Of a stretch of 64,000 nucleotides of DNA, positions 34,009 to 46,633 are shown one piece after another. Under the pieces are notes generated by a model. It was given only the letters and a program-made list of their open reading frames with translations, searched no databases and was not told where the DNA came from. The position numbers were made by a program, and so were the translations under genes. This DNA is from Anaerolineae bacterium. Lineage in GTDB: Bacteria; Chloroflexota; Anaerolineae; S140-20. Each line of letters opens with the position of its first letter. The stretch's first letter is position 1. The DNA is taken from the NCBI GenBank assembly GCA_027021705.1, contig JALUTT010000077.1, positions 1 through 64,000 on the forward strand. The letters are read 5' to 3'.

Positions 34009-34082
34009 GGCCCGCTAGCTCAATTTGGCAGAGCAGGGGACTCTTAATCCCTTGGTTGCAGGTTCGAGTCCTGCGCGGGTCA
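34009..34082 (+). tRNA. tRNA-Lys (anticodon CTT); CCA not fully encoded
   Basis: Acceptor GGCCCGC/GCGGGTC, D arm TAGCTCAATTTGGCAGAGC, anticodon arm GGGGA-CTCTTAA-TCCCT, T arm GCAGG-TTCGAGT-CCTGC. Confidence 0.97.
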
Positions 34083-34085
34083 CCT
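34041..34085 (+). repeat. attL: 45-bp core (3' half of tRNA-Lys)
   Basis: CTCTTAATCCCTTGGTTGCAGGTTCGAGTCCTGCGCGGGTCACCT, identical to 46589-46633. Confidence 0.96.
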
Positions 34086-34117
34086 GTAAACGCACCCTAA
34101 CCCGAAAGGGGGTGCCT

Positions 34118-34366
34118 ATGCCCAGACGGGTAGCTACCCTGGTGGACTGGGCTTTTGCCCCTGACTGGCTCACCGTCGAGAAGGCCGCCGAACTAACCGG
34201 CTACACCGAGGACTTCATCCGCTGGCTGATCCAGGATGGGGGCGTAGAAGTGAAGCAACAAGGCGATACGTGGCTCATCGAGAAGGCCAGTCTGCGTGAG
34301 TACCGGGACGCACTGCTGGAAACGCTCCAGTTGCAGCGTGACCTGGGGCTTGAGTCCGATGACTGA
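34118..34366 (+). CDS. Excisionase-like HTH DNA-binding protein 1
   Basis: WLTVEKAAELTGYTEDFIRWLIQDG..WLIEKASL, typical of the HTH_17/Xis pattern; adjacent to attL. Confidence 0.78.
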   Translation: MPRRVATLVDWAFAPDWLTVEKAAELTGYTEDFIRWLIQDGGVEVKQQGDTWLIEKASLREYRDALLETLQLQRDLGLESDD

Positions 34367-34387: not shown

Positions 34388-34420
34388 AGGCCCCACCATC
34401 GGCAGGTGGGGCTTTGCTTT
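34388..34420 (+). terminator. Intrinsic terminator after xis-like gene 1
   Basis: AGGCCCCACC-7nt-GGTGGGGCTT followed by TGCTTT. Confidence 0.65.
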
Positions 34421-34506
34421 GTCTCGGAAAACGCTCCCCCCGGCCTTCCTGAAAGGGGGAGGACGGAGCGAAAAAAATTTTCCCCAGAAAAGTACCTATG
34501 GGTCCC

Positions 34507-34658
34507 CTGACTGGTGACACTGGTGACACTGGTGACACCGAGAAACTTAAGCGTAAATGTTTCCTTTATAAAGTGTCTTCTCCCAGGAGAAAGCCTGTCA
34601 CCAGTTGACACAAAAACTGGTGACAGGACTGGTGACACCGGTGACAAAACCGGTGACA
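34507..34658 (+). repeat. Left iteron/AT-rich block (origin-like); inverted copy of 45173-45313
   Basis: Three tandem CTGGTGACA, an AT-rich spacer, one inverted TGTCACC and four further GGTGACA; about 7 differences in ~141 bp from the reverse complement of the right block. Confidence 0.9.
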
Positions 34659-34705
34659 AGACCGGGAGGAGAGCCATCACCGGCCTTCACCCTTTGTACC
34701 CTGGA

Positions 34706-34741
34706 AAAGCCTTCAAAGTCTTCAAAGCCTTCAAAGCCTTC
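34706..34741 (+). repeat. Four tandem 9-mers AAAG(C/T)CTTC
   Basis: AAAGCCTTC AAAGTCTTC AAAGCCTTC AAAGCCTTC. Confidence 0.85.
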
Positions 34742-34758
34742 ACCGGCCGTTGGCTGCA

Positions 34759-34992
34759 ATGGGCAAAGACTTCGACCCGACCGAATGGATCACCACCAAA
34801 GAGGCTGCCGAGTTGACGGGGTACCACGTTGTCCATATCCGTCGGCTTGCGAAAGCTGGCCGTATCAGGGGGATAAAGCGTGGACGCGATTGGTGGGTAG
34901 AGCGCGAGAGTGTACAGGCTTACGTTGAGGAGATGGAGCGGTTGGGCTCCGCCAAGCATGATCCTCGGCGGGTAGGCGTCCGTCAGAGATGA
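34759..34992 (+). CDS. Excisionase-like HTH DNA-binding protein 2
   Basis: WITTKEAAELTGYHVVHIRRLAKAGRIRGIKRGRDWWVERESV. Confidence 0.8.
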   Translation: MGKDFDPTEWITTKEAAELTGYHVVHIRRLAKAGRIRGIKRGRDWWVERESVQAYVEEMERLGSAKHDPRRVGVRQR

Positions 34993-34993
34993 G

Positions 34994-35022
34994 TTGACAC
35001 CCTCTTTTTTTTGTGGTATACT
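34994..35022 (+). promoter_or_regulatory. Near-consensus sigma70 promoter driving the element's main operon
   Basis: TTGACA-17bp-TATACT with a TG extension. Confidence 0.8.
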
Positions 35023-35108
35023 GTGTTCGCACGGGAACGGTCCTATCCCGTTTCTTTTTCCGGCTAAGTTAGTTCTCCAGAGAACACACACCAGCGAGGG
35101 AAATAGCG

Positions 35109-35330
35109 ATGTACTTGGGATACTGGGCAGAAGAGGTTTACCCCCGCCCGCTGGAGGACGATGGGCTTTGTGGGGAATGCGGCCGGCGACCGGCATCCTG
35201 GGGTGATTGGTTGTGCCCTCGGTGCCGCCGGCGGCTGGAGGAATCCCTGGCCCCGGATGCCGACGATACCGTCCAGAATGCCCCTGAGAGGCCCCAGGAG
35301 GCCCCAGGAGCGGCTTTTTCGGCAGAATAG
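35109..35330 (+). CDS. Small Zn-finger-like hypothetical protein
   Basis: CGEC...CPRC; GAGGG RBS; first ORF after the promoter. Confidence 0.55.
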   Translation: MYLGYWAEEVYPRPLEDDGLCGECGRRPASWGDWLCPRCRRRLEESLAPDADDTVQNAPERPQEAPGAAFSAE

Positions 35331-35341
35331 GAGGGAGAACC

Positions 35342-35593
35342 TTGAGCGAAGTCCTTGAGGGGTGGATTACGGCAGCCGAGGCCGCAGCCTTGACCGGTTA
35401 TACTGTCCCTCATATCCGTCGCCTGGCCCGCCAGGGCCGGATTGAGGCCCAGAAGGTGGGCCGAGACTGGCTGATCGGCCGGGAGAGCCTGCTGGCCTAC
35501 AAGCGGCAGATGGAGGCCCTGGGCTCCCAGAAACACAACCCCTGGCGGGAGGACCTGGGGCGGCAAGGACGACGGAGGAAGGCCGATGACTAA
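35342..35593 (+). CDS. Excisionase-like HTH DNA-binding protein 3
   Basis: WITAAEAAALTGYTVPHIRRLARQGRIEAQKVGRDWLIGRESL; clear paralog of 34759-34992, including the MExLGSxKHxP tail. Confidence 0.82.
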   Translation: MSEVLEGWITAAEAAALTGYTVPHIRRLARQGRIEAQKVGRDWLIGRESLLAYKRQMEALGSQKHNPWREDLGRQGRRRKADD

Positions 35594-35984
35594 CTGGCAA
35601 CATCCCAGGAAGAAACTGATCTCGGCCGCTGCCGATGCTTATCAGCGGGGCTGGGGAAGCATCGGGGAGTTGGCCGAGAGCGCGGTCCGACGGCACTATA
35701 TGGGCAAGTCACCGGACCGTGCCCTCCGGCTTTTCGTCCGAGACCTGTACCGCGAGGTGGTCCGTCGAGGAGACCCAGAATTTCGGCAGATGGTTGAGAC
35801 CCTCCACGCCGAAGGTTGGGAGTATCTCCCGATGGACGGTGTGGGGATGCGAGGAATCTTTTTCCATCGCCCCACCGGTAACCAAGTGAACCGGATGGGT
35901 GGCCCCTTCGATTCGTTTGAGGAGGCCGTCAAGGCAACCTACTACAGCGCGACCAGAGAACTCTTGCAAGAGGGGAACCGATGA
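35586..35984 (+). CDS. Hypothetical protein
   Basis: Coupled start/stop overlaps with both neighbours; GGAGG RBS; protein-like composition. Confidence 0.6.
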   Translation: MTNWQHPRKKLISAAADAYQRGWGSIGELAESAVRRHYMGKSPDRALRLFVRDLYREVVRRGDPEFRQMVETLHAEGWEYLPMDGVGMRGIFFHRPTGNQVNRMGGPFDSFEEAVKATYYSATRELLQEGNR

Positions 35985-36250
35985 CCGATACCCAGATCAT
36001 CCGGCTCACCACCCCGCTCCCCTGTGGGGTGATGCGTGAGGGAAACCGATGTGGACGACCGGCCTATGTGGCTTCCGCTACGCCGGTGGCTATGTCCGAG
36101 GACCCGGAACCGGACAACGTTGTGGCCGATCTGGTGGCCCGGATGTACCGGGGGCACTGGCTCATCCTGCCGGTGTGTGTGCAGTGTGTGCGTGACCTGT
36201 CCGAACGCTACCAATTGGAGGTGTCCGATGAAGAAAGCGCGACGACTTGA
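35981..36250 (+). CDS. Hypothetical Cys-containing protein
   Basis: ATGA overlap; C-x7-C...CVQC pattern. Confidence 0.6.
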   Translation: MTDTQIIRLTTPLPCGVMREGNRCGRPAYVASATPVAMSEDPEPDNVVADLVARMYRGHWLILPVCVQCVRDLSERYQLEVSDEESATT

Positions 36251-36962
36251 GATCATCCCGCTGGTCCTGTGGCTGACCCTGGCCCTGGCAATGGTCGGCT
36301 CCCTGACGCACACCGCCTGGGCCTTCGCCACCCTGGAGGACGGGAACCTGACCGCCGGCTACATCCAGGCGGTGGCGGTGGACCTGGGCCTCTTCGCCCT
36401 GGCGTTCAGCATCCAGAAGCGCCGGCGGCAACGTCGCCCGACCTGGACCCTCTGGGCCGGAGTTGGGCTGTTCAGCGGAATCTCCGCCTACGCCAACCTG
36501 TTGCACGGGCTGGCGTTCCAGGGCCGCTTGCCCCTGTCAGGGTGGACGTGGCTGGCCTCCCTGCGCCCGTTCATCCTGTCGGGCGTCCTCCCCCTGCTGG
36601 TGCTCTACCTCTCCGAGATCATCTCCTCCGACGTTCAGCACGCCGTCCAGCAGGCCGAGCGGGAGCGAAAGCGGGCCGAACGGCTGGCCGCCCGCCGGCC
36701 GTCAACTTCAGAGCAACCCAACGCCTTCCCCTACGACATCGAACAGGCCAGAACCCAAGCCCTGGAACGCCGGCGCCTTAGCAAGGACCAGGCTCTGGAA
36801 CGCCTCCTTGACTTCCTGGCCGACCACCCGGACGCAAGCCTCTCCGAAGCCGGGCGGCACATCGGACGAAGCAAGACCACCGTCTCCAACTACCTGAACG
36901 AACTGGAGGAGAGCGGGCGCATCCGGCGGAACGGCCAGGGAATCGAGGTGCTGGCGAGGTGA
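36228..36962 (+). CDS. Four-TM membrane protein with coiled coil and C-terminal HTH (DUF2637/Spd-like)
   Basis: GGAGG RBS; TM segments with SLTH, AVAVD, SAYANLLH and LPLL motifs; C-terminal SLSEAGRHIGRSKTTVSNYLNELEESGRI winged HTH. Confidence 0.75.
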   Translation: MKKARRLEIIPLVLWLTLALAMVGSLTHTAWAFATLEDGNLTAGYIQAVAVDLGLFALAFSIQKRRRQRRPTWTLWAGVGLFSGISAYANLLHGLAFQGRLPLSGWTWLASLRPFILSGVLPLLVLYLSEIISSDVQHAVQQAERERKRAERLAARRPSTSEQPNAFPYDIEQARTQALERRRLSKDQALERLLDFLADHPDASLSEAGRHIGRSKTTVSNYLNELEESGRIRRNGQGIEVLAR

Positions 36963-37127
36963 ACGGAGGTCCGGGGGCAGGTGTGCAAACGGGCGTTGGC
37001 CCACCTGCCGGGGAAAGGAAACCGCCGGCAGGTCTTGGACCCACCGGCGGAAGGGAGATGCCCGCGCGAGAACGCGGACACCCCAAGTATACAGGAAACG
37101 GTGCGAGTTGACAAGGGGAGGTGCCCA

Positions 37128-38717
37128 ATGAGGCGAGAACGAGGACTAGCCGTCACCGTCTTGCTCATCGCTGCGTTGGCCGTCTTCAGCGGATGGCAGC
37201 TTGCAGGGGGCATCCGCGACATCATCACCCGCGACGAACTCCGGGAGGCCGCCCGGCTGGAGAACGAACACCGCGCCCGGATGGAACCCTGGCGACGGGC
37301 GGGGAAGATAGCCGCAGGCGTCATCGGCCTGCTCACCCTGGCCGGTCTGGGGAGTGCCCTCATCGTCTACGCCCACCGACGGGCCGGGGAGATTCGGCCC
37401 GGCCCTGACGGCCAGTTTCCCATCATCCGGGTCCGAGTGGGCGGCGCTACGGTCCTACACGACCCCAACCGGCAGTTGGCCCCCACCGTCGTCTACACCA
37501 CCCCCCGACTGGCCCAGAACGTGGTGGTGATGCCGGTACTTCCCCCCGGCCTGGAGACCGAGCAGGTGGCCACCACCGCCCGCGCCCAGGCCGTCCAACT
37601 GGCCTCGGCGGTCAACAAACATCGGCCGGTGCTGACCGATGGTGGCGCACCGACGCACCCCCAACCCCTGGAGGACCGCCGGCAGGCCCTGGAGGACGCC
37701 CTGGCCCCCCTCTGGCCTACCCGGGTGCCCCTCACCGGCCTACTCAACGGGAGCCCCGTCAGCCTGGAGCGGCTGGTGTTGGGGGTGACCGTCCGCGAGG
37801 ACGGGCGGACAGAGGTTGTCCGGGGCGGGATGAGCAAGCTGGTCCACGTCGCCGTCGGCGGGAGCTCGGGTTGGGGCAAGTCCAACTTCCTCCGCGCCCT
37901 GGCCTACCAACTGGTCCTGGCCCAAGAGCGGCCCGACCTGGTGATGATTGACCTGGAGGGGGCAACCCTGGCCCCTTTCAGCCGGTCGGACCGGCTGCTC
38001 TACCCCCTGGCCGACACCGAGGACGACGCCCTGGCCGTGCTCCAGGCCGTCAACGAGGAACTGGACCGGCGCAAGGCCCTCTTCGGCCGGTATCCCGGCA
38101 CCGACAGCCTGGCGGCCTACAATGCCAGGGCCGAGGAGCCCCTGGCCCCCGTGATCACGGTCACCGATGAGGCGACGGCCTTGCTGGGCGACAAGCGGGT
38201 CGAGAAAGCGCTGAAGACCCTGGCCTTGAGGGGGCGCAAGTACGGCCTCTGGCTGGTCTTGGCGGGGCAGGACTGGAAGGCCAGCAGCCTCGATACCGCC
38301 ATCAGGAACCAGCTTGCGACGCGCGTCCAGTTTAAGGCCCTCAGCTCTTCCCAGAGCCGGGTGCTCTTGGGGCAGCCGGGGGCCGAGAAGCTGGAGGATG
38401 TGCCGGGGCGGGCCTTGGCCGTGCTGCCGGGCCGTGGCCTGGTCAAAATCCAGGCCCCCCACATCAGCCCGGCCGAGATTGAGCGGGCGCTGGCCGGTCA
38501 CGACACCGGAGCACGGCGGAACGTGCCGCGACCTGAGATGGACACCCGAGCCGAGACCATCCGGCAACTGGCGGCCCAGGGGTTGAGCCTGCGCGAGATT
38601 CAACGTCGGGTGTTCGGCTACGTGGGGGGAGCCGCTTACGATGAGGTCAAGCGGGTTCTGGAGGGCGGTACTGAAGGCGATACAGGCGGTATTACTGTAC
38701 CGTCTGGGGCCGTCTAG
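37128..38717 (+). CDS. Membrane-anchored FtsK/SpoIIIE (TraB-like) DNA translocase
   Basis: Two N-terminal TM helices; HVAVGGSSGWGKSN Walker A, MIDLE, ELDRRK, VTDE Walker B, RGRKYG arginine finger, LAGQ, GAEKL..PGRA; C-terminal HTH. Confidence 0.88.
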   Translation: MRRERGLAVTVLLIAALAVFSGWQLAGGIRDIITRDELREAARLENEHRARMEPWRRAGKIAAGVIGLLTLAGLGSALIVYAHRRAGEIRPGPDGQFPIIRVRVGGATVLHDPNRQLAPTVVYTTPRLAQNVVVMPVLPPGLETEQVATTARAQAVQLASAVNKHRPVLTDGGAPTHPQPLEDRRQALEDALAPLWPTRVPLTGLLNGSPVSLERLVLGVTVREDGRTEVVRGGMSKLVHVAVGGSSGWGKSNFLRALAYQLVLAQERPDLVMIDLEGATLAPFSRSDRLLYPLADTEDDALAVLQAVNEELDRRKALFGRYPGTDSLAAYNARAEEPLAPVITVTDEATALLGDKRVEKALKTLALRGRKYGLWLVLAGQDWKASSLDTAIRNQLATRVQFKALSSSQSRVLLGQPGAEKLEDVPGRALAVLPGRGLVKIQAPHISPAEIERALAGHDTGARRNVPRPEMDTRAETIRQLAAQGLSLREIQRRVFGYVGGAAYDEVKRVLEGGTEGDTGGITVPSGAV

Positions 38718-38801
38718 GGCGATACCCGGTACCGGTAATACCGCCGGTACTGTAATACCGCTTGTCCGGGGAGCGGATACACCGGATTCTGGACGGTGGC
38801 A

Positions 38802-38870
38802 ACGGTGACAAGTGACGGTGACAAGTGACGGTGACAAGTGACGGTGACCGGTGACACCTGTCACCGTCAC
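38802..38870 (+). repeat. Tandem 13-mer array ACGGTGACAAGTG (about 3.6 copies) plus GGTGACACCTGTCACC palindrome
   Basis: Read directly; contains the same GGTGACA core as the origin-like blocks. Confidence 0.88.
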
Positions 38871-38943
38871 CCGGCAGCTTATCAACCGCCTATGCGTCAA
38901 CTGCCTATGTGTTAACCACCGTCACCTGCGGAGGGAGGGGAAG

Positions 38944-39417
38944 ATGCTAAGCGAGGCGGACCTGGAACGATTCTTCCGGCGGATGTGGGAGGAGCAGCGT
39001 CGGGGGCGATACCTTCTCCCGGAGGACCCCAGGCGCACCCTCGCCCGCCGGGTTGAGCGGGCAGTCATCCAGAAGCTCATCGGGCGGGGGCACCGGGTGA
39101 GCAAGGCTGCCCCCAACGAGCACTGGGACCTCTGGGCCGACGGGATCAGGATTGAGGTCAAGGCGGCCACCTGGCACGGACGCTACCAGGCGAATCTGAG
39201 GGGGAACGACGCCGACGTGCTCATCCTCGGCTGCGTCAACGGGGATGTCCACTTCTTCGTCATCCCCTTCGACCGGCTGGAGGGCCGACGCCACGTTGCC
39301 ATCTGGTCGCCCGACCCGGCCCGCTACCTGGGCCGCTGGGCGCCCTTCTACGAAGCCTGGGAGTGGCTGGACGCCCTGGAGGTCCGCAATCCCTGGCAAC
39401 TCCCGCTGTTCCCCTAG
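38944..39417 (+). CDS. PD-(D/E)XK-fold nuclease-like protein
   Basis: E...WDLWADGIRIEVKAA matches the E-D-EXK active-site pattern; GGAGGG RBS. Confidence 0.65.
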   Translation: MLSEADLERFFRRMWEEQRRGRYLLPEDPRRTLARRVERAVIQKLIGRGHRVSKAAPNEHWDLWADGIRIEVKAATWHGRYQANLRGNDADVLILGCVNGDVHFFVIPFDRLEGRRHVAIWSPDPARYLGRWAPFYEAWEWLDALEVRNPWQLPLFP

Positions 39418-39469
39418 TTTCAATCCCCCATCAGGCGGGAGAGGGTTTGCGACTTGGAGGGATGAAGCT

Positions 39470-39730
39470 ATGCTGACAGAACAGGAACGAATCTTGGAGA
39501 CCCAGGAACAAGTCTTGGAGACCTTGGACCGACTTGCCTCCTTGGTTGAGCTTGCCAAGGAGGAAGCCGAGAGATATGACCCGTTCGGCCTTCTCGAAAC
39601 TCGGCTTCGGCAGATCGAGCAGACCGTTCAGACCGTGCGCGACTTGGCCGGGGTGGGCAAGAAGAGAACCCGACTTACGATCACCATCACCGACCGGCCG
39701 TGGCTGCCGGGGCTGCCCTGGCCGCTGTGA
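39470..39730 (+). CDS. Hypothetical coiled-coil protein
   Basis: GGAGG RBS; helical E/L/Q-rich sequence. Confidence 0.55.
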   Translation: MLTEQERILETQEQVLETLDRLASLVELAKEEAERYDPFGLLETRLRQIEQTVQTVRDLAGVGKKRTRLTITITDRPWLPGLPWPL

Positions 39731-39742
39731 GGGAGGGGCACG

Positions 39743-40009
39743 ATGACTACCCTGATCGCAGCGTACAACTCTGAGGGCTGCATTGGCCGTTGTGACGCCA
39801 AGTGCTACAACGCCACCGGCCCCGACTGCGAATGTATCTGCGGCGGCCTTAACCACGGCGCAGGGGTGGAAAAGGCGATGGAGAACACCCGCGAGCTGGC
39901 CGAGGAGTGGATGCGGCAGTGGCGCACGGAGCACCCGGACACGGAATACTTCCTGGTCCCGGCGGCGCAACTGTCCTTGTGGGGCCTTCTGGAGGAAGGG
40001 CGATGTTGA
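39743..40009 (+). CDS. Cys/His-rich hypothetical protein (probable metal binding)
   Basis: CDAKCYNATGPDCECICGGLNHG; GGAGG RBS. Confidence 0.7.
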   Translation: MTTLIAAYNSEGCIGRCDAKCYNATGPDCECICGGLNHGAGVEKAMENTRELAEEWMRQWRTEHPDTEYFLVPAAQLSLWGLLEEGRC

Positions 40010-40197
40010 GGCTTCTGATGATCGCGCTGGTGCTGGTGTTGTCGGCCTTCGTGCCCGGTACGACGGTGGTTGAGGGAACGATGAAGGGGACGGCCACCCT
40101 CGGCCTCGCCCGCCTGACCATCGGGCGGGCGACGGTCCGCGTCACCCTGCACCCCTACCGGCCCAACCGGGTGTACTACCGTCTGGCGGTGACGTAG
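40003..40197 (+). CDS. Small hypothetical protein with hydrophobic N-terminus
   Basis: GGAGG RBS; fills the operon gap exactly. Confidence 0.45.
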   Translation: MLRLLMIALVLVLSAFVPGTTVVEGTMKGTATLGLARLTIGRATVRVTLHPYRPNRVYYRLAVT

Positions 40198-40599
40198 ATG
40201 GACGACCGGGATCGGCTCTGGGCAGCCTGGAGAGAGGAACAGGCAAGGCGCTGGCGGGCCTTCGCCGATTCCCTGACGCCGGATCAGCGAGAACTGCTCC
40301 GACGCTATGAGGAAGCCTGTCGGCAGGTGGCCCGGTTGCGCCGGATGGAATCGGCCCGGAGGCGCGGGCGGCCTTACCGGGGGCAGCCGGTGCCCCGGCC
40401 TTGGACCGAAGTCGGGGGCATCGTCCGGTGGCACGACACCCGGTGGCGCGTCGCCCGGCGCTACCGGATGAGCGAGGTGGGCAGGCTGGAAGCCGAGGAC
40501 CGTTGGCTGGTGGACCTGGAGCCGTTGGAAGAGGGATGGGACCCCTACGTGGGGGTCCCCGAGTCTGAAATCGAGGAATGGAACGATGAAAGTAAGTGA
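40198..40599 (+). CDS. Hypothetical protein
   Basis: Abuts the upstream stop and overlaps the downstream start. Confidence 0.55.
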   Translation: MDDRDRLWAAWREEQARRWRAFADSLTPDQRELLRRYEEACRQVARLRRMESARRRGRPYRGQPVPRPWTEVGGIVRWHDTRWRVARRYRMSEVGRLEAEDRWLVDLEPLEEGWDPYVGVPESEIEEWNDESK

Positions 40600-40780
40600 C
40601 GATCTGGTGTTAGAAGCGTGGCGAGGAGAGCAGCCGTACTTTCTACTGCGCAGCCTGGGGCGGGAGGAAGGCGGACAGGGGGTGATCATCCTGCCCGACG
40701 AAATCCCCGCCCTGATTGAGGCGCTGACCGAGGTGGTGAACGATGAGCAACGACCTGGCGGTGACCCACAACGCGGCTGA
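40586..40780 (+). CDS. Small hypothetical protein
   Basis: GAGG RBS; protein-like composition; provides the RBS for the recombinase. Confidence 0.5.
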   Translation: MKVSDDLVLEAWRGEQPYFLLRSLGREEGGQGVIILPDEIPALIEALTEVVNDEQRPGGDPQRG

Positions 40781-41702
40781 GTTGCTGAGGCGAGAGGACC
40801 TGCTGGCAGCGTTCGCGGCGTTCCTCCGGCTCAACGTCGCCGAGGGTGACGCAAGCGCGGCCACGGTGCGGACCTACTGGAGCCAGGTACGCCAGTACGT
40901 GGCCTGGTGCCGGGAGCGGGGGCTGGACCCGGCCCTGGCCTCGGAGCACGACCTGCTGGAGTACCGCGCCTGGCTGGCCGAACGCTACACGCGGGCGACG
41001 GTGGCCACCAAACTCGCGGCGGTGCGCCGGCTCTACCAGGCCGCCGTCTGGCGGGGGATGAGGGCCGACAACCCCGCTGCCGGCCTGAAGGCCCCGAAGG
41101 AAAAGACGGCCAGGGAGGAGCGGGTGAAGTTTCTGCCGCTGGAGGGGCTCAAGCGGCTCCTCCAGGCCCCCCAGGGCGACGGGGCCAAGGGCCGGCGGGA
41201 TAGGGCGATGCTGGCCCTGATGGGCGTCCACGGCTTGCGTGTAAGCGAGGTGGCCGGGCTGGATGTGGACGACCTCGACCTCGACCAAGGTCGGGTCACG
41301 GTCACCGGCAAGGGCCGGAAGACGCGCACCGTCTACCTGACGGAGCAGACCGCGCAGGCCCTGGCCGCTTGGCTGGAGGCGCGGGATCGGGTGGCCGCCG
41401 AGGATGAGCCGGCCCTGTTCGTCAGCCTTCGCCATCCTGACCCGGGCACCCGGATGAGCGCGAGGTCAATCCGCTACCTGGTGGACGGCTACCTGGAGCG
41501 GCTGGGGCTCAAGGGGGAAGGGATAAGCTGCCACAGCCTGCGGCATAGTGCCGCGACCTGGGCGCGGGCCGGGGGCGCGGCCCTGGACGCCATTGCCGGG
41601 ATGCTGGGGCATTCGTCGGTGACGACGACGCAGGTCTACGCCCGGATCGTGGACCGGATGACCGAGAACCCGGCCCGCTACCTGGAGGCCCTGCTGGGAT
41701 AG
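40743..41702 (+). CDS. XerC/D-like tyrosine recombinase (probable resolvase)
   Basis: SAM-like N-terminal domain; catalytic set GLRVSE, GKG, HSLRH, LGH, TTQVY. Confidence 0.93.
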   Translation: MSNDLAVTHNAAELLRREDLLAAFAAFLRLNVAEGDASAATVRTYWSQVRQYVAWCRERGLDPALASEHDLLEYRAWLAERYTRATVATKLAAVRRLYQAAVWRGMRADNPAAGLKAPKEKTAREERVKFLPLEGLKRLLQAPQGDGAKGRRDRAMLALMGVHGLRVSEVAGLDVDDLDLDQGRVTVTGKGRKTRTVYLTEQTAQALAAWLEARDRVAAEDEPALFVSLRHPDPGTRMSARSIRYLVDGYLERLGLKGEGISCHSLRHSAATWARAGGAALDAIAGMLGHSSVTTTQVYARIVDRMTENPARYLEALLG

Positions 41703-41754
41703 GGGAGGGAGGCTTGCTCTCGCCCTCTCTCCCCTTCCCAGGGAAAGGGCCGGT

Positions 41755-41782
41755 GCTTCCTGTTATTGGGATTATCGGAAGC
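41755..41782 (-). promoter_or_regulatory. dif-like 11-6-11 tyrosine-recombinase site
   Basis: The minus strand reads GCTTCCGATAA-TCCCAA-TAACAGGAAGC, an imperfect inverted repeat 53 bp after the recombinase stop. Confidence 0.65.
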
Positions 41783-41859
41783 AACGCTGACAGTCGTATA
41801 CTGTATAATCCGCATTTTGTCAAGGGCACTTGTGTTTGAACTGCCTACAGCAGTCGTTC

Positions 41860-41904
41860 TTGACACCTACAGGGAGGAGTGTTATAATCCTGCGTGTATA
41901 ACAC
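41860..41904 (+). promoter_or_regulatory. Consensus sigma70 promoter of the replication operon with an overlapping operator-like inverted repeat
   Basis: TTGACA-17bp-TATAAT with a TG extension; the GTGTTATA-10bp-TATAACAC palindrome overlaps the -10 and start site. Confidence 0.8.
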
Positions 41905-41965
41905 AATGAGAGGGGACACTGGAGGAGGATGTGCCCACAGTGTCCCCTTTTGCTAGGAGGACACA

Positions 41966-42133
41966 ATGCGCAAACACTTCGTGGGGTTCCGCCTTGAGCC
42001 GCACCTGTATCACGCTTTGAAAACACAGGCGCGGCAGCGTGGCAACACCGTCTCTGAGGAGATTCGGCTGGCGATTCGGGAATACCTGAAGAAAAGGAGT
42101 AAAAAAACAAGGAGTAAACGATGGCTATCGTAA
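41966..42133 (+). CDS. CopG/Arc-like ribbon-helix-helix protein (55 aa; below the ORF-track cutoff)
   Basis: AGGAGG RBS; MRKHFVGFRLEPHLYHALKTQARQRGNTVSEEIRLAIREYL fits the beta-alpha-alpha pattern; overlaps the primase start. Confidence 0.8.
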   Translation: MRKHFVGFRLEPHLYHALKTQARQRGNTVSEEIRLAIREYLKKRSKKTRSKRWLS

Positions 42134-45100
42134 CCCGTAGGAACGAAAGAAGGCCCGCTACAGCGGGGGATGCTGGCGGGCCGGGCGGGAATAACCACCG
42201 AGTTGTTTCTGCCCCACATTATACCCCAAATTCCCCCAACGGTCAAGTACCGCGCGAGGTCCTTGACGCAATCAAGGACCGCGTGGACTTCCCCCGCCTG
42301 TTCGAGGAGGTCTTCGGGATCACCTTGCCCCGTTCCCCCAACGGACGGGGGTCGGTGAAGGTCCGCTGCCCCCGGCCCAATCACCTCGACCGGGACCCGA
42401 GCTGTACCGTCTACCACAACCGCGTCCACTGCTTCGGCTGTAACTGGCACGCCGATGTCATTAACCTGGTGAGGGAGCGGTACGGGGTGGGATTCCGGGA
42501 AGCCGTGCGTATCCTGGCGGCTCAGGTCGGGTATCCGCTCTCCTCCCTCACCCCTGAGCAGGTCCAAGCGATGCAGACACAGCGGGAATACGAGGACGGC
42601 TTGATCCGGGCGGCAGCGTTCTTCCACCAACACCTGCTGGAATCGGAGGCCGGGATGGAGTACGCCCGGAGCCGCTGGTCCGAGGAGGCGATCCGGGCGG
42701 AGTGGATCGGCTTTGCCGACGGCTCCCCTCTACCCGACCTGGGCAACGAACAGGCTCGGCAGGTGGCGGAGGCCGTCAACCGCTGGGCGGCCCGGGTCGG
42801 CGGGGCCGTTGTCTACGCCCACCGACGGGGCGGGCGCGTTGTCTACCTCTCGGCCCGGTCCATCCGGGAGAAAAAACACTACAACCCCCCCGGCCGCTTC
42901 GCCGGTCCGAAACAGCCCTACGTCAACTCCGTCTATTCCTCCCGGTCCGACGAGGTGATCATCGTCGAAGGGCAGGCGTGCGCCATCACGCTGGCCGGGT
43001 GGGGCTTTCCTGCCGTCGCCCTGGCGGGAAGCAGTCCGTCCGAGGACCTGGCCCGGCTGCTACGGGGGGAGCGGGATGTCTACGTCATCCCCGACGCCGA
43101 CGGAAGAACCGATGTCCAGGGCTTGGTGGAGGCCCTGGGGCCACAGATCATCGTGGTCACCCTGCCGGACGGGGTTGCCGACGTGAACGACTGGGCACGG
43201 AAGGACGGGACGGCGGAGGCGCTGAGGGACCGCCTGAACGAGGCCCCGGAGTGGCTGGAGCAGCAGATCACAGAGATCGCCGAGATGCCGAAGGGCCGCC
43301 GGCGGGATAGGGAGATGGAGAGGGTGTTCCGGTGGCTGAAACCCCTTCCCCCCCTCGACTGGGAACGCTACGGGGCGTTGGTGTGCGAGGACCTAAAACT
43401 CCTCTCACGACGGACGTTCAACAGGATGCTCAAGCAGACGGAGGCCGTCGAGATCGAGGGCAACCGCTACCTGGTCCGAGAGGGGAGGCTGTGCATCGAG
43501 CACCGGAAGGACGGGGGACGCTACGTTGAGCCTCTGTGCAACTTCGCGGCCAGGGTGACGACCGACATCACCTATGACGACGGGCAAGAAACCGTCCGCC
43601 GTTTCATCGTAGAGGGCCAACTGGAGGACGGGACCGCCCTTCCCCCCGCCCTAGTGGACGCGGGCAAATTCCCGGACATGAAGTGGATCACCGAGGCGTG
43701 GGGATCGAGGGCCATCGTTGCCGCCGGACACGGGAAGCGAGACCAACTACGGGAAGCGATCCAGCGGCTTAGCGGTGAGGTGGTCACCAAACGGGTGTAC
43801 ACACACCTCGGCTGGCGACAGATTGACGGGAAGCGGTGCTACCTGCACGCGGGCGGGGCGCTGGGACACGACGGCGTGGAAGTGGAACCGGCAAAGGAAC
43901 TGACCCGCTACCGGCTGCCCAACGAGCCTGACGACGTGCGCGGTGCGATGGAGGCCAGCCTACGGCTTCTGGAGATGGCCCCTCTCCGGCTCACCGTCCC
44001 CCTCTGGGCGTCGGTCTGGTTGGCCCCCGTGTCGGAGATCGTCCACCCGGACTTCGTGCTCTGGCTCTACGGTCGGACGGGGACCTTCAAGAGCAGTATG
44101 GCGGCCCTCTTCCTCTCCCACTACGGCGGGCCGTTCACGGCCAAGGACTTGCCGGGGTGGTGGTCCACGGCCAACGCGCTGGAGAAGCTATGCTATCTCA
44201 CCAAGGACGCACTGCTGGTCATTGACGACTTCGCCCCGAAGAGCAACCCCCGTGAGGCCAGGGAGCAGAGGGCGACGGTGAACCGGATCATCCGTGCCGT
44301 CGGCAATCGGGCCGGCCGGCAACGGCTCAACCGCAACCTGCGCCTGCGGAAGTCCTACCCCCCTCGCGGTCTGGTCATCTCAACGGGGGAGATGATCCCC
44401 GGCTTGCAGTCCGTTGTAGCCAGGCTGTACGTTGTCGAGGTGGGGCAAGGAGACGTGGACCGGGAGCGACTGAGCGCGGCCCAGGCGGAAGCCGAACGAT
44501 ACCCCCACGCGCTGGCCGGATACGTGCTCTGGCTCTCGGAGCAGTGGGACGAACTCAGGCAATCGCTTCCCCGGCAACTGAGGGAGATCCGCGATAGACT
44601 GGTGTCGGAGGTAGGGGGAGAACATATGCGCCTCCCCAATGCACTGGCTATGTTGTACCTGGGATTTGACCTGGGGTTGCAGTACGCAGTTGAGGTTGGG
44701 GCTCTGAGTGAGGAAGAGGCAAACGGGTGGCGCAATGCCGGATGGACTGCCCTTACCGCGTCGGCAGAAGCCCATAGCCGCCAGGTGGCAGCCGAGAGCC
44801 CCACCGGCCTCTACTTTGAGGCCCTGGAGGAGTTGCTGGCCCAGAGGAAGGTGAGGCTTAAGTCTGTACAGGGCGGTTCCATCGTGGGATCGGAAGAGGG
44901 GGAACACATCGGATGGTACGACGATGACCACATCTACCTGCTTCCCCGGGTCGCATACAAAGCGGTCAACGACCTTCTCCGGGGCACGGGGCGAGACTTT
45001 CCCCTCGACGAGCGAGCGCTGCGCAAGTACCTGGCGGAAGAGGGGTATTTGGAACGGCAGGGTGAGCGGTACACCGTCCTAAAGCGGACACCGGCGGGGC

Positions 45101-45168
45101 GCCGGCACGTGTTGAAAATACGCCGGGAGCGGGTGACACTGCTCCCGGAGGAGGGTTCTCCAGGGTAA
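42121..45168 (+). CDS. Primase-helicase replication protein (CHC2 Zn finger, TOPRIM, DUF927-like region, P-loop helicase)
   Basis: CPRPNH..DPSC..HCFGC Zn finger; IIVEG, PDAD and DVNDW TOPRIM motifs; GRTGTFKSS Walker A, STAN, LVIDDF Walker B, ISTGE. Confidence 0.9.
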   Translation: MAIVTRRNERRPATAGDAGGPGGNNHRVVSAPHYTPNSPNGQVPREVLDAIKDRVDFPRLFEEVFGITLPRSPNGRGSVKVRCPRPNHLDRDPSCTVYHNRVHCFGCNWHADVINLVRERYGVGFREAVRILAAQVGYPLSSLTPEQVQAMQTQREYEDGLIRAAAFFHQHLLESEAGMEYARSRWSEEAIRAEWIGFADGSPLPDLGNEQARQVAEAVNRWAARVGGAVVYAHRRGGRVVYLSARSIREKKHYNPPGRFAGPKQPYVNSVYSSRSDEVIIVEGQACAITLAGWGFPAVALAGSSPSEDLARLLRGERDVYVIPDADGRTDVQGLVEALGPQIIVVTLPDGVADVNDWARKDGTAEALRDRLNEAPEWLEQQITEIAEMPKGRRRDREMERVFRWLKPLPPLDWERYGALVCEDLKLLSRRTFNRMLKQTEAVEIEGNRYLVREGRLCIEHRKDGGRYVEPLCNFAARVTTDITYDDGQETVRRFIVEGQLEDGTALPPALVDAGKFPDMKWITEAWGSRAIVAAGHGKRDQLREAIQRLSGEVVTKRVYTHLGWRQIDGKRCYLHAGGALGHDGVEVEPAKELTRYRLPNEPDDVRGAMEASLRLLEMAPLRLTVPLWASVWLAPVSEIVHPDFVLWLYGRTGTFKSSMAALFLSHYGGPFTAKDLPGWWSTANALEKLCYLTKDALLVIDDFAPKSNPREAREQRATVNRIIRAVGNRAGRQRLNRNLRLRKSYPPRGLVISTGEMIPGLQSVVARLYVVEVGQGDVDRERLSAAQAEAERYPHALAGYVLWLSEQWDELRQSLPRQLREIRDRLVSEVGGEHMRLPNALAMLYLGFDLGLQYAVEVGALSEEEANGWRNAGWTALTASAEAHSRQVAAESPTGLYFEALEELLAQRKVRLKSVQGGSIVGSEEGEHIGWYDDDHIYLLPRVAYKAVNDLLRGTGRDFPLDERALRKYLAEEGYLERQGERYTVLKRTPAGRRHVLKIRRERVTLLPEEGSPG

Positions 45169-45172
45169 AGGC

Positions 45173-45313
45173 TGTCACCAGTGTCACCAGTTTTGTCACC
45201 AGTTTTTATGTCAACTGGTGACAGGCTTTCTCCTGGGAGAAGACACTTTATACAAGGAAACACTTACGCTTAAGTTCCTCGGTGTCACCAGTGTCACCAG
45301 TGTCACCAGTCAG
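45173..45313 (-). repeat. Right iteron/AT-rich block (probable replication origin), immediately after the primase stop
   Basis: Three TGTCACCAG, one inverted CTGGTGACA, an AT-rich spacer and three tandem TGTCACCAG; reverse complement of 34507-34646. Confidence 0.9.
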
Positions 45314-45366
45314 AGATACAGGGTATCTTTTGGGAGAAAAATTTTTCCGCCTCTGGAGGGTAGACG

Positions 45367-45642
45367 ATGGGGTACCGGCTTATACTACCGTCTGTGCTCT
45401 CGGAAGTAGAGCGTCCGGCGCAAGGAGAACGGACCGAGCGCCCTTCCGCCCTTGTTCGGCCCCCCATCCCTGAGCCGGACTGGGAAGCGTTGGGCATCTG
45501 CTTTCCCCTGGACCTACGGGAGCTCCCTTGGGCGTGCGCAAGGCTGGAACAAGCCGGCTACGACGCCTGGGTTGAGGACGACGGATGGCAATTGGTCCTG
45601 CGATACCGCCTAAACACACAGACGAAGGGGGGTGAACGATGA
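45367..45642 (+). CDS. Hypothetical protein upstream of the integrase
   Basis: GGAGG RBS; ATGA overlap with the integrase. Confidence 0.6.
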   Translation: MGYRLILPSVLSEVERPAQGERTERPSALVRPPIPEPDWEALGICFPLDLRELPWACARLEQAGYDAWVEDDGWQLVLRYRLNTQTKGGER

Positions 45643-46595
45643 GACTTCTGGAGGCCGTTGATGCATTCTTGACCGCGACCAGGGCCGACGGTCGCAGCCC
45701 CAAGACGGTGGACAGCTACCGGCGGAAGCTGAAACCCCTGACGGACTTCCTGGGCGACGTGCCGGTCGAGGCGATCACCGCCGACGATCTACGGAAGTAC
45801 ATTACCGACCTGATGGATCGGCGGACCAGGTGGCGTGAGCACCCGAAGCACCGGGAACGGGAGGGTGGGCTTTCGCCCTTCACCGTCGCCGGTCACGTTC
45901 GGGCTCTCAAGCGGCTGTTCAACTGGCTGGAAGGCGAGGGGGTGATCACGAACAATCCCGCCCGCCGTATCAAGACACACCAGCCGAAACAGCGGACGTT
46001 GAAGGCGGTCTCCGTCGAGGACTTCCTGGCACTGCTGGCCACCACCCAGGGGGAAGGGGTGTCGGACCTACGGGATCGTGCTATCATCCTCTTCCTGGCC
46101 GATACGGGATGTCGAATCGGGGGGCTGTGTGGGCTGAGGCTGGACGACCTGGACCTGGAGGAAGAGGTTGCCTTCGTCACGGAGAAGGGGGGGAAGACGC
46201 GCCCGGTGCCCTTTACCACGGTGACGGCAGAGGCGTTGAGGGCCTGGCTGGCCGTGAGGCCCGACGCCGGCGAGTACGTCTTCGTCAGCCTGGGCAACAA
46301 GGCAGTCGGGCGTCTCACACCCAACGGGGTGCGGCAGATGCTGAGGCGACGGGCGAAGCAGGCCGGGATAACGCGGCCCGTCAACCCCCACGCCTTCCGG
46401 CATGCCTTTGCAAGGGAGTATCTGCTGAACGGTGGCGATCTGGCGACGCTTGCCGACCTGCTAGGGCACAGCAGCGTTGAGGTCACCCGGTTTTTCTACG
46501 CGAGGTTTCGGTACAAAGAGCTGAAGGAAAAGCACGACCGTCATAGTCCGGTAGCGCGATTAGTCGAGAAAGGAGGGCTCCGTGTCCGCTCTTAA
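45639..46595 (+). CDS. Tyrosine integrase of the tRNA-Lys element
   Basis: GRSPKTVDSY SAM-like domain; TGCRIG, EKGGK, HAFRH, LGHS and FFY catalytic motifs; ends inside attR. Confidence 0.93.
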   Translation: MRLLEAVDAFLTATRADGRSPKTVDSYRRKLKPLTDFLGDVPVEAITADDLRKYITDLMDRRTRWREHPKHREREGGLSPFTVAGHVRALKRLFNWLEGEGVITNNPARRIKTHQPKQRTLKAVSVEDFLALLATTQGEGVSDLRDRAIILFLADTGCRIGGLCGLRLDDLDLEEEVAFVTEKGGKTRPVPFTTVTAEALRAWLAVRPDAGEYVFVSLGNKAVGRLTPNGVRQMLRRRAKQAGITRPVNPHAFRHAFAREYLLNGGDLATLADLLGHSSVEVTRFFYARFRYKELKEKHDRHSPVARLVEKGGLRVRS

Positions 46596-46633
46596 TCCCT
46601 TGGTTGCAGGTTCGAGTCCTGCGCGGGTCACCT
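46589..46633 (+). repeat. attR: duplicated 3' half of tRNA-Lys
   Basis: 45/45 identity with 34041-34085. Confidence 0.96.

Follow-up and report, generated by a model that had tools for sequence, protein, structure and literature searches.

Two near-identical, inverted blocks of short repeats stand about 10.5 kb apart in a 12.5-kb island of an Anaerolineae bacterium (contig JALUTT010000077.1, assembly GCA_027021705.1), and the question they raise is whether each block is a replication origin, half of one, or something else. The window, as used here, is the whole 64,000-nt stretch that was analysed; its own assembly comprises 5.19 Mb in 183 contigs. The island is integrated in tRNA-Lys(CTT), and its ends are a perfect 45-nt direct repeat (34041-34085 and 46589-46633) corresponding to the 3' part of the tRNA. 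All island genes lie on the + strand, in the order hthA, left arm, hthB, hthC, a winged-helix protein, an FtsK/SpoIIIE translocase, several open reading frames (ORFs) without a family match, int2 (Xer-like), a 1015-aa primase-helicase, right arm, a 91-aa ORF and int1, where the arms are the two repeat blocks. The best explanation, to which we assign a probability of roughly 0.55, is that the arms are two helicase-loading origins that arose by duplication, or one origin and an auxiliary iteron locus. The basis of this reading is architecture, position, fold similarity, conservation and concerted change in relatives; from these we infer binding by the helicase domain, firing of either copy and cooperation between the copies. 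The features that carry the argument are as follows.

34468..34658, + strand: left arm (core 34507-34646), with an iteron triple at 34511-34537, an AT-rich spacer at 34538-34595, an inverted iteron at 34596-34604 and direct iterons at 34617-34658 (repeat search, alignment, motif count)
45173..45350, - strand: right arm (core 45173-45313), reverse-complementary to the left arm, with iterons at 45173-45200, inverted iterons at about 45217-45223, a spacer at 45224-45282 and an iteron triple at 45283-45309 (repeat search, alignment, motif count)
42121..45168, + strand: primase-helicase, with a DnaG-type zinc ribbon and primase, a DUF927 helicase and a C-terminal winged helix in about the last 120 aa (Pfam)

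Two inverted iteron arms in a tRNA-Lys island

Global alignment of 34507-34646 with the reverse complement of 45173-45313 gives 6 mismatches and 1 gap in 141 columns (95% identity), as the first-pass annotation of this DNA had described. Repeat search resolves the match into two inverted pairs, 34560-34646 with 45173-45259 (87 nt, 92%) and 34507-34566 with 45254-45313 (60 nt, 97%), and a search of the 5.19-Mb assembly turns up no copy beyond these two. The weaker similarity that the annotation had seen farther outward is also present and extends for about 45 nt (34460-34506, 5 mismatches and 12 gap columns in 49), and similarity is lost on the inward side.

In each arm, three CTGGTGACA units in direct succession are followed by a spacer of about 58 nt and a single inverted unit, and then by three (right) or four (left) direct units, the inverted iteron being 16 nt from the next direct unit in each arm. 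The left spacer contains the most AT-rich 50-nt window of the element (G+C fraction 0.34 versus 0.645 for the element) and the right spacer the third most AT-rich (0.38); over the whole spacers the values are 0.41 and 0.46. The heptamer GGTGACA occurs 24 times in the window against 8.1 expected, a count reached in 0 of 100 shuffles, and 21 of the 24 fall in three clusters within the element (34513-34658, 38804-38865 and 45132-45307). None of the seven differences between the arm cores lies inside a shared GGTGACA. The right arm begins 5 nt past the primase-helicase stop codon (45168) and includes a hairpin (45192-45225) that is terminator-like on the + strand; the left arm is placed after the hthA terminator, not 3' of the helicase gene. 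In the integrated element 10.5 kb separates the arms, and in the excised circle about 1.74 kb would, measured across the 91-aa ORF (orf45367), int1, attP and hthA. A consensus scan found no sigma-70-like promoter inside either arm. Candidate hexamers chosen there by eye were unconvincing and were discarded.

Each arm has the layout of a SaPI-type origin

Staphylococcus aureus pathogenicity islands (SaPIs) and phage-inducible chromosomal islands (PICIs) replicate from compact origins. SaPI origins have a central AT-rich region with 6 to 12 iterons around it, those on one side being oriented opposite to those on the other (PMC9371898), and the arrangement of two iteron sets around an AT-rich centre is also described in PMC6092414. 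In SaPI5, three 7-nt iterons are separated by a dinucleotide, which gives a period of 9, an inverted iteron follows at a distance of 15-17 AT-rich bp, and the bases are read by a β-hairpin wing (bioRxiv 10.64898/2026.10.17.759575). The C-terminal domain of SaPI Rep recognises a short-iteron origin directly downstream of its own gene, and DUF927 marks Cch, a relative of SaPIbov1 Rep (PMC7581432). Two iteron sets around an AT-rich centre, together with the SaPI layout of the right arm, mark each window arm, as far as its sequence goes, as a complete origin-like unit of the SaPI/PICI type and not as half of one. The origin-like nature proposed by the annotation thus agrees with the architecture, and the right arm is in the SaPI/PICI position.

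The N-terminus of the primase-helicase has a PDB profile match to DnaG (2au3, E = 6e-33). An AlphaFold model of the last 150 aa (predicted local distance difference test score 83) has the SaPIbov1 Rep C-terminal domain, 8tch_A, as its best structural match (Foldseek E = 1.4e-4); VIA-align gives Z = 10.1 and a root mean square deviation of 3.0 Å over 103 residues, covering chain residues 453-561. The next match is the helicase Cch of the staphylococcal cassette chromosome mec (SCCmec), with Z = 7.0. The origin-binding domain of P4 α was not among the 50 listed entries of the structure search, from which no conclusion is drawn. The modelled fold makes the C-terminal domain a plausible iteron binder.

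The primase-helicase gene is also a mosaic. Its DnaG-type primase part (region 42121-43330; residues 1-446 of the protein) is 82% identical to that of a protein, P0011, whose helicase and C-terminal domain are of an unrelated type (group 2 below), and the breakpoint is near residue 400-446. In both groups many primase-helicases terminate in an acidic stretch and then IPF, VPF, ISF, IHF or IAF, with codons that vary by element (L100, L122, L120, L124, L106, L060, L009, L136, L113, L116 and L127); the window protein (45140-45168) ends in EEGSPG and has no such tail. The tail resembles the one at the C-terminus of bacterial single-stranded DNA-binding protein, and it may recruit host replication proteins.

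Relatives carry one arm or two

Relatives were gathered from 80 genome loci, 80 metagenome loci and 61 viral-contig loci, and element genes and repeats were mapped on each; L-numbers label these loci, and X1-X3 denote public sequencing runs. The window defines group 1, and group 2 comprises relatives whose helicase and C-terminal domain are unrelated to those of the window. The protein is rare: about 15 proteins match the primase-helicase over its full length, the best with 51-52% identity. The gene has a match in 12 of 401 genomes sampled from the class (best match outside its own genome 52% identical) and, among the four genomes of the order, is carried by the window's own alone. Related contigs of metagenome-assembled genomes (MAGs) give the family a host range within Chloroflexota (Anaerolineae, Thermoflexus, Aggregatilineales).

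A strict search for triple tandem units covered the 34 loci, window included, with the full-length type of primase and found an array right after the primase gene in 11: the window, L060, L085, L087, L100, L101, L102, L122, L124, L125 and L169. Arrays in this place can be recognised by eye in L106, L114, L118 and L120 too. The iteron itself varies among elements and is, for example, GCGGTAACA, GTGGTTACA or ACTGGACAA.

Two inverted arms are less common. Of the 28 metagenome loci that reach 5 kb and 40% primase identity, three (L100, L102, L122) have a split inverted pair with one arm adjoining the primase gene. The arms of L102 are 82% identical and, like those of the window, stand at the two ends of the core, those of L100 are 77% identical and 370 bp apart with no attP between them, and those of L122 form a reduced pair sharing 53 nt (91%). 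L126 has one full block upstream of hthB and a bare inverted triple upstream of int1. In the distant L060 (primase 31% identical), two complete inverted blocks of opposite polarity lie about 100 bp apart. Nine of the 28 loci, all of group 2, have instead one self-complementary palindrome of 113-180 nt after the primase gene (L105, L111, L112, L113, L115, L116, L117, L127 and L135). Repeats after the primase gene in viral-contig relatives form a single array each, and short opposed or tandem repeats directly follow the primase stop codon in at least four such contigs (L178, L182, L223, L225). The expectation that homologues keep two co-evolving inverted copies therefore holds for L100 and L102 and partly for L122 and L126, but not for the many relatives with a single block or array, a state that the annotation had named as evidence against its proposal: L126, L114, L106, L118, L120 and the viral contigs with repeats after the primase gene are of this kind. 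Two copies are a trait of one subgroup, not a requirement of the replication system.

The split arms of the window, L100, L102, L122 and L126 share one geometry, with inverted arms whose iteron triples face the inter-arm segment. The content of that segment changes from element to element. It holds a small ORF, a tyrosine integrase gene, attP and hthA in the window; a small ORF and a large serine recombinase gene (Resolvase, Recombinase and Zn_ribbon_recom domains) in L102; the small ORF of L102 and a 13-codon remnant of the serine recombinase gene in L100; and five genes followed by a tyrosine integrase gene and hthA in L122. The segment between the arms is an exchangeable integration cassette.

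Several further observations concern the relatives. Identical contig ends, of 123 nt in L126 (18276 nt) and 127 nt in L116 (19531 nt), mark these two as probably complete circular relatives of 18.2 and 19.4 kb, which would be free plasmid forms. Full-length relatives of the primase-helicase with 34-36% identity lie on viral contigs of 29-54 kb (L177-L182, L223, L225, L226), and thus this initiator type also serves phage-like genomes; in L177 and L181 the gene directly downstream of the primase appears ParB-like from its translation alone. Stacked sets of triple iterons with a period of 9 lie upstream of hthB in L116 (14700-14940), L113 (9930-10260) and L127 (8700-8970), and in L124 (9150-9700) the gene that follows the primase is preceded by four tandem iteron cassettes whose leader is repeated. 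Some of the stacked sets match the origin iterons of other elements (L106-type, L122/L124-type), and the sets may have been left behind by module exchange, or may serve as decoys or sensors toward initiators of rival elements.

Iterons change in both arms together with the helicase C-terminus

L100 and L102 are closely related. In alignment columns 150-1050 every 50-residue window of their primases shows 86-100% identity, and the value falls to 46% at the C-terminal end, which includes the wing strands. The iteron is GCGGTAACA in both arms of L100 and GTGGTTACA in both arms of L102. The spacer palindromes are kept, and the FtsK region is 96.7% identical in DNA while the iterons differ, and therefore the translocase does not track the iterons. 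For the same reason a role of the iterons as recognition sites for FtsK/TraB, in the manner of clt, was rejected. The two arms within L100 also differ less in their iteron cores than elsewhere (92% versus 68% identity in other columns, Fisher p = 3e-4); the trends in the window (91% versus 82%, p = 0.09) and L102 (83% versus 75%, p = 0.14) have the same direction and are not significant.

X2 and X3 contain a sister element whose match to the window stops at 43331 (near primase residue 404) and resumes at 45465 in X3 and 45890 in X2; its helicase, C-terminal domain and right arm are not matched to the window. One X2 contig jumps from 34422 to 34697 over the left arm, with a shorter side of 22 letters only. 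The mosaic of P0011 follows the same pattern. This sister element may be a natural swap in which the arms, the helicase and its C-terminal domain were replaced together, a weak hint in the same direction.

A proposed model with two helicase-loading sites

In the proposed model, the wing of the C-terminal winged helix would recognise the iterons, and the DnaG-primase/DUF927-helicase would load itself there. The right copy occupies the canonical place directly 3' of the helicase gene, and the left copy would be an inverted duplicate, placed after the int1-hthA terminator and heading the hthB genes. Selection would keep both. The copies would most likely act as two helicase-loading sites, or as an origin and an auxiliary locus that pair for copy control or looping in a P4 crr- or inc-like manner. 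With the copies inverted, homologous recombination would only flip a segment, and deletion of the cassette or the core would be excluded.

Several observations weigh against this model. The HTH_17 proteins hthB and hthC also diverge between L100 and L102 (43% and 30% identity), and the sister element of X2 and X3 differs from the window within hthB from 34825; the helicase wing and the HTH_17 proteins can therefore not be told apart by linkage. The group-2 elements L113, L116 and L127 have palindromic iterons of their own after the primase gene, yet carry GGTTACA-, GGTCAA- and GGTGCG-type triples upstream of hthB, and tblastn found no stand-alone group-1 C-terminal domain in the group-2 element DNA examined. 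These arrays are not explained by origin function and would fit regulator binding. In L118, L120, L122, L124 and L126 a bare triple precedes the next gene's ribosome-binding site by 20-55 nt, as an operator would. One iteron core is paired with quite different wing sequences. L114, L106, L118 and L120 carry one short array, L126 has a single full block, and a second inverted copy is present in none of the nine full-length relatives on viral contigs within the DNA examined; this initiator family therefore does not need the second copy. Finally, contig depth in X1 is 64-68 in the element against 79 and 69 in the flanks, and hence there is no sign of autonomous replication in that sample. A code relating wing residues to iteron bases was sought in 19 aligned domains and none was evident.

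Other features of the island

The remaining features of the island are listed by position.

34009..34084, + strand: tRNA-Lys(CTT), the integration target (ARAGORN; Rfam tRNA, 65 bits)
34041..34085, no strand: attL, left one of the two 45-nt repeat copies, formed by the tRNA's 3' part (repeat search, 100% identity)
34025..34366, + strand: hthA, HTH_17, excisionase-like, adjoining att (Pfam HTH_17, E = 2.5e-7)
34388..34414, + strand: terminator-like hairpin closing the int1-hthA unit (sequence scan)
34706..34741, + strand: four AAAGYCTTC units with a period of 9, directly upstream of hthB and different from the arm iterons (repeat search)
34750..34992, + strand: hthB, HTH_17 DNA-binding protein, likely ATG at 34759 (Pfam HTH_17, E = 4e-11; PHROG excisionase/regulator families)
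34994..35022, + strand: sigma-70-like promoter, TTGACA-17 nt-TATACT, before the hthC operon (consensus scan, 11 of 12 positions)
35342..35593, + strand: hthC, HTH_17 DNA-binding protein (Pfam HTH_17, E = 3.5e-11)
36036-36962, + strand: winged-helix protein
36981..38717, + strand: FtsK/SpoIIIE-type translocase, TraB-like as in actinomycete elements (Pfam FtsK_SpoIIIE, E = 8e-12; PHROG 1358, E = 2e-40)
38802..38865, + strand: third GGTGACA cluster, units with a 13-nt period and an inverted pair (repeat search, motif count)
40743..41702, + strand: int2, second tyrosine recombinase, Xer-like (Pfam Phage_integrase, E = 1e-34)
41860..41888, + strand: sigma-70-like consensus promoter before the primase-helicase gene (consensus scan, 12 of 12 positions)
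45367..45642, + strand: small ORF, 91 aa, without a match in family searches, starting 54 nt outside the right arm
45639..46595, + strand: int1, tyrosine integrase adjoining att (Pfam Phage_integrase, E = 2e-33)
46589..46633, no strand: attR, right copy of the 45-nt repeat (repeat search)

The real start of hthA is probably downstream of the tRNA. Homologues of hthA with 54-57% identity (tblastn) directly follow int1 in L006, L113, L122 and L135, and int1 homologues, 54-69% identical (tblastn), adjoin hthA in relatives. Hairpins equivalent to 34388-34414 can be read upstream of the left arm in L100, L102, L122 and L126, and promoters equivalent to 34994-35022 upstream of hthC in L100, L102 and L122. 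Homologues of int2, 65-76% identical (tblastn), occur in L003, L103, L109, L110, L112 and L132, and int2 lies upstream of the primase gene in many relatives. Apart from the tRNA and one sub-threshold chance match, the search for Rfam RNA families returned nothing. The winged-helix protein at 36036-36962 was considered as a conserved binder of the iterons and dropped, as it had no tblastn match at E ≤ 1e-5 in L003-L082 and L098-L176.

Two repeat arrays are additions to the first-pass annotation. The AAAGYCTTC array occurs once in the window, between the left arm and the start of hthB. The third GGTGACA cluster sits (region 38682-38888) between the FtsK-like gene and the next gene, and a 21-nt inverted repeat (38682-38702 and 38745-38765) just precedes it; the cluster is a possible clt-like transfer site or copy-control site.

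Alternative explanations

The arms could be operator arrays for hthB or hthC, small regulators with an Xis/MerR-like HTH_17 domain, which would control the orf45367-int1-hthA unit from the right arm and hthB from the left, with origin function separate or absent. Iteron arrays do lie directly upstream of hthB in the window, L100, L102, L113/L115, L116, L126 and L127, elements with other-iteron helicases included; triples stand close ahead of a ribosome-binding site, either that of int1 or that of the gene following the primase; hthB is replaced from its recognition helix onward whenever the iterons change; and HTH_17 proteins match excisionase/regulator PHROGs. The hthB recognition helix, however, does not track the proximal iteron, since three different helices occur with GTTACA (L102, L113, L116), and near-identical helices occur in L126 (GGTAACA) and in L006, which has no array. 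No array is present at hthB in L006/L135 and L122, and the array nearest hthB in the window is AAAGYCTTC x4, not GGTGACA. The arms are inverted while both neighbouring units are on the + strand, and thus one promoter geometry cannot serve both; nor is there a sigma-70-like promoter inside the arms, although the element uses consensus promoters elsewhere. This explanation would also leave the group-1 helicases without origin repeats of their own, and on balance we regard it as doubtful, though it is the main rival.

A more elaborate proposal takes the inverted origin pair as a functional bracket around the exchangeable cassette. Helicase hexamers bound at the arms would pair them, and the paired arms would loop out the int-attP-xis segment of the circle or bring attL close to attR in the chromosome, such that a single protein would couple excision, integrase expression and initiation. 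The foreign-specificity triples upstream of hthB in sister elements may act as decoys or sensors toward rival initiators, which would amount to iteron-based incompatibility or cross-talk among co-resident Chloroflexota elements. We consider this version speculative and unlikely.

One arm could be a recent neutral duplicate that arose with cassette acquisition, for example by recombination of two element copies, leaving the primase-adjacent copy as the only one that works. An identity of 95% fits a recent event, many relatives have one block, and about 45 nt of the outer leader of the right arm are copied at the left arm, where no gene follows. Against this, L100 and L102 still have the pair, their arms being 77-82% identical and conserved preferentially in the iteron cores, the iteron is switched in both arms between these two elements, the copied outer flank has the same extent in both, and the distant L060 also has two inverted complete blocks. 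Because the pair persists and its iterons were switched together in L100 and L102, a neutral recent duplicate is distinctly unlikely.

The annotation had favoured, among other ideas, a bipartite origin whose halves are united by excision, with replication licensed by circularisation. The distance does shrink from 10.5 kb in the integrated form to 1.74 kb across attP in the circle, and int1 and hthA lie between iteron sets in L122 and L126 too. Both arms are complete and stay intact after integration, however, and the 10.5-kb path is present in both forms. Pairs lie 370 bp apart in L100, with no attP between them, and about 100 bp apart in L060, and other relatives manage with a single block. 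The idea of joined halves is not supported on these grounds, and licensing by circularisation is very improbable.

Least credible of all are arms that serve as crossover sites for inversion of the 10.5-kb core or the int cassette, giving isomers or 2-micron-like amplification: 141 bp at 95% identity in inverted orientation are enough for homologous recombination and int2 is present, but the inter-arm genes have one orientation relative to the primase in all five split-arm elements (window, L100, L102, L122, L126), the arms show iteron architecture and not a short recombinase core, int2 occurs in relatives without split arms, and element depth equals flank depth. Four public runs list no strand-changing joint, but contigs break inside the arms (X1: 34536 and 45238/45284).

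Comparison with known systems

The two-origin reading places the arms closest to the SaPI/PICI origins of SaPIbov1 and SaPI5. Shared features are the location directly 3' of the initiator-helicase gene, iterons with a period of about 9 in two sets with an AT-rich centre and an inverted iteron, a C-terminal winged helix of the self-loading-helicase type (by fold likeness, 8tch Z = 10.1), a fused primase as in SaPI5, and an island setting with int and xis. In the literature surveyed, as far as its listings and excerpts extend, SaPI/PICI origins and self-loading helicases are single-copy modules of satellites of Firmicutes and Proteobacteria. The window element differs in having two complete inverted copies about 10.5 kb apart around the integration cassette, a DnaG-type primase in place of an archaeo-eukaryotic primase, an FtsK-like translocase, no phage-interference or packaging genes, and a Chloroflexota host.

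The comparison with P4 made in the first pass stands for the architecture of the protein. In P4 α, too, one polypeptide joins a Toprim/DnaG-type primase to a helicase and to a winged-helix domain for origin binding, and P4 has two separated iteron loci. P4 crr is a second iteron locus, and ori and crr are both required in cis. The helicase here is of the DUF927 type (Cch/SaPIbov1-Rep-like), a type not known from P4, and the loci are near-identical inverted full units, not differently built ones. The window element thus has two near-identical full iteron loci plus a third cluster, against two different loci in P4. The union of primase, helicase and winged helix in one protein that binds origin repeats is described in PMC4234260, and PMC9942202, in its excerpted text, names crr without describing it.

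Integrative and conjugative elements of actinomycetes (AICEs) such as pSAM2, SLP1 and pMEA300 replicate by RepSA/RepAM-type proteins, for which a rolling circle is proposed, without theta-type iterons. The host here is not an actinomycete, and the excerpted text of PMC2440964 describes no duplicated origin for AICEs; it does report Rep binding sites at the 3' end of rep in pMEA300-type elements. The likeness is in the plan of the element (PMC2440964): 11-17 kb of DNA that occupies a tRNA gene and carries int and xis, a replication gene and only one FtsK/SpoIIIE-type transfer protein. The window element shows this plan in its tRNA-Lys target, its perfect 45-nt repeat, int1 adjoining attR, and an FtsK_SpoIIIE domain protein with a putative role in transfer.

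Paired or distant initiator sites are also found in plasmids, viruses and plastids. P1 incA and the α, β and γ loci of R6K are extra initiator-binding repeats distant from the origin that pair through the initiator; unlike the arms, each is a 19-22-bp iteron array lacking its own AT-rich centre, and none is an inverted full origin copy. The oriS pair of herpes simplex virus consists of two identical inverted origins that flank a unique segment, with initiator-helicase sites on either side of an AT spacer. Here, as in pSM19035 and the plastid inverted repeat (IR), origins lie inside kilobase-long inverted repeats, and the segment between is known to invert. In the window element, unlike the oriS and IR systems, the repeat amounts essentially to the origin unit (about 140-190 bp) and no inversion is seen.

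In the literature listings and abstracts surveyed, no such arrangement was described for Chloroflexi integrative primase/FtsK elements, nor were two inverted iteron origins. On present evidence this is not a categorically new mechanism. What the elements add is an extension of SaPI/PICI origin logic to small FtsK-bearing integrative elements and phage-like contigs of Chloroflexota (Anaerolineae and Thermoflexus-like MAGs), one subgroup of which keeps two inverted complete origin copies around non-homologous integration cassettes. The natural variants amount to a specificity-swap series in which one backbone has switched its iteron, helicase wing and hthB, and the reading of iterons by wing residues is open to test, as is what the second origin copy contributes, for example initiation at two sites, control of copy number through pairing, or a safeguard for the cassette. 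Pairing of the arms, if true, would be a simple model for coupling replication to excision.

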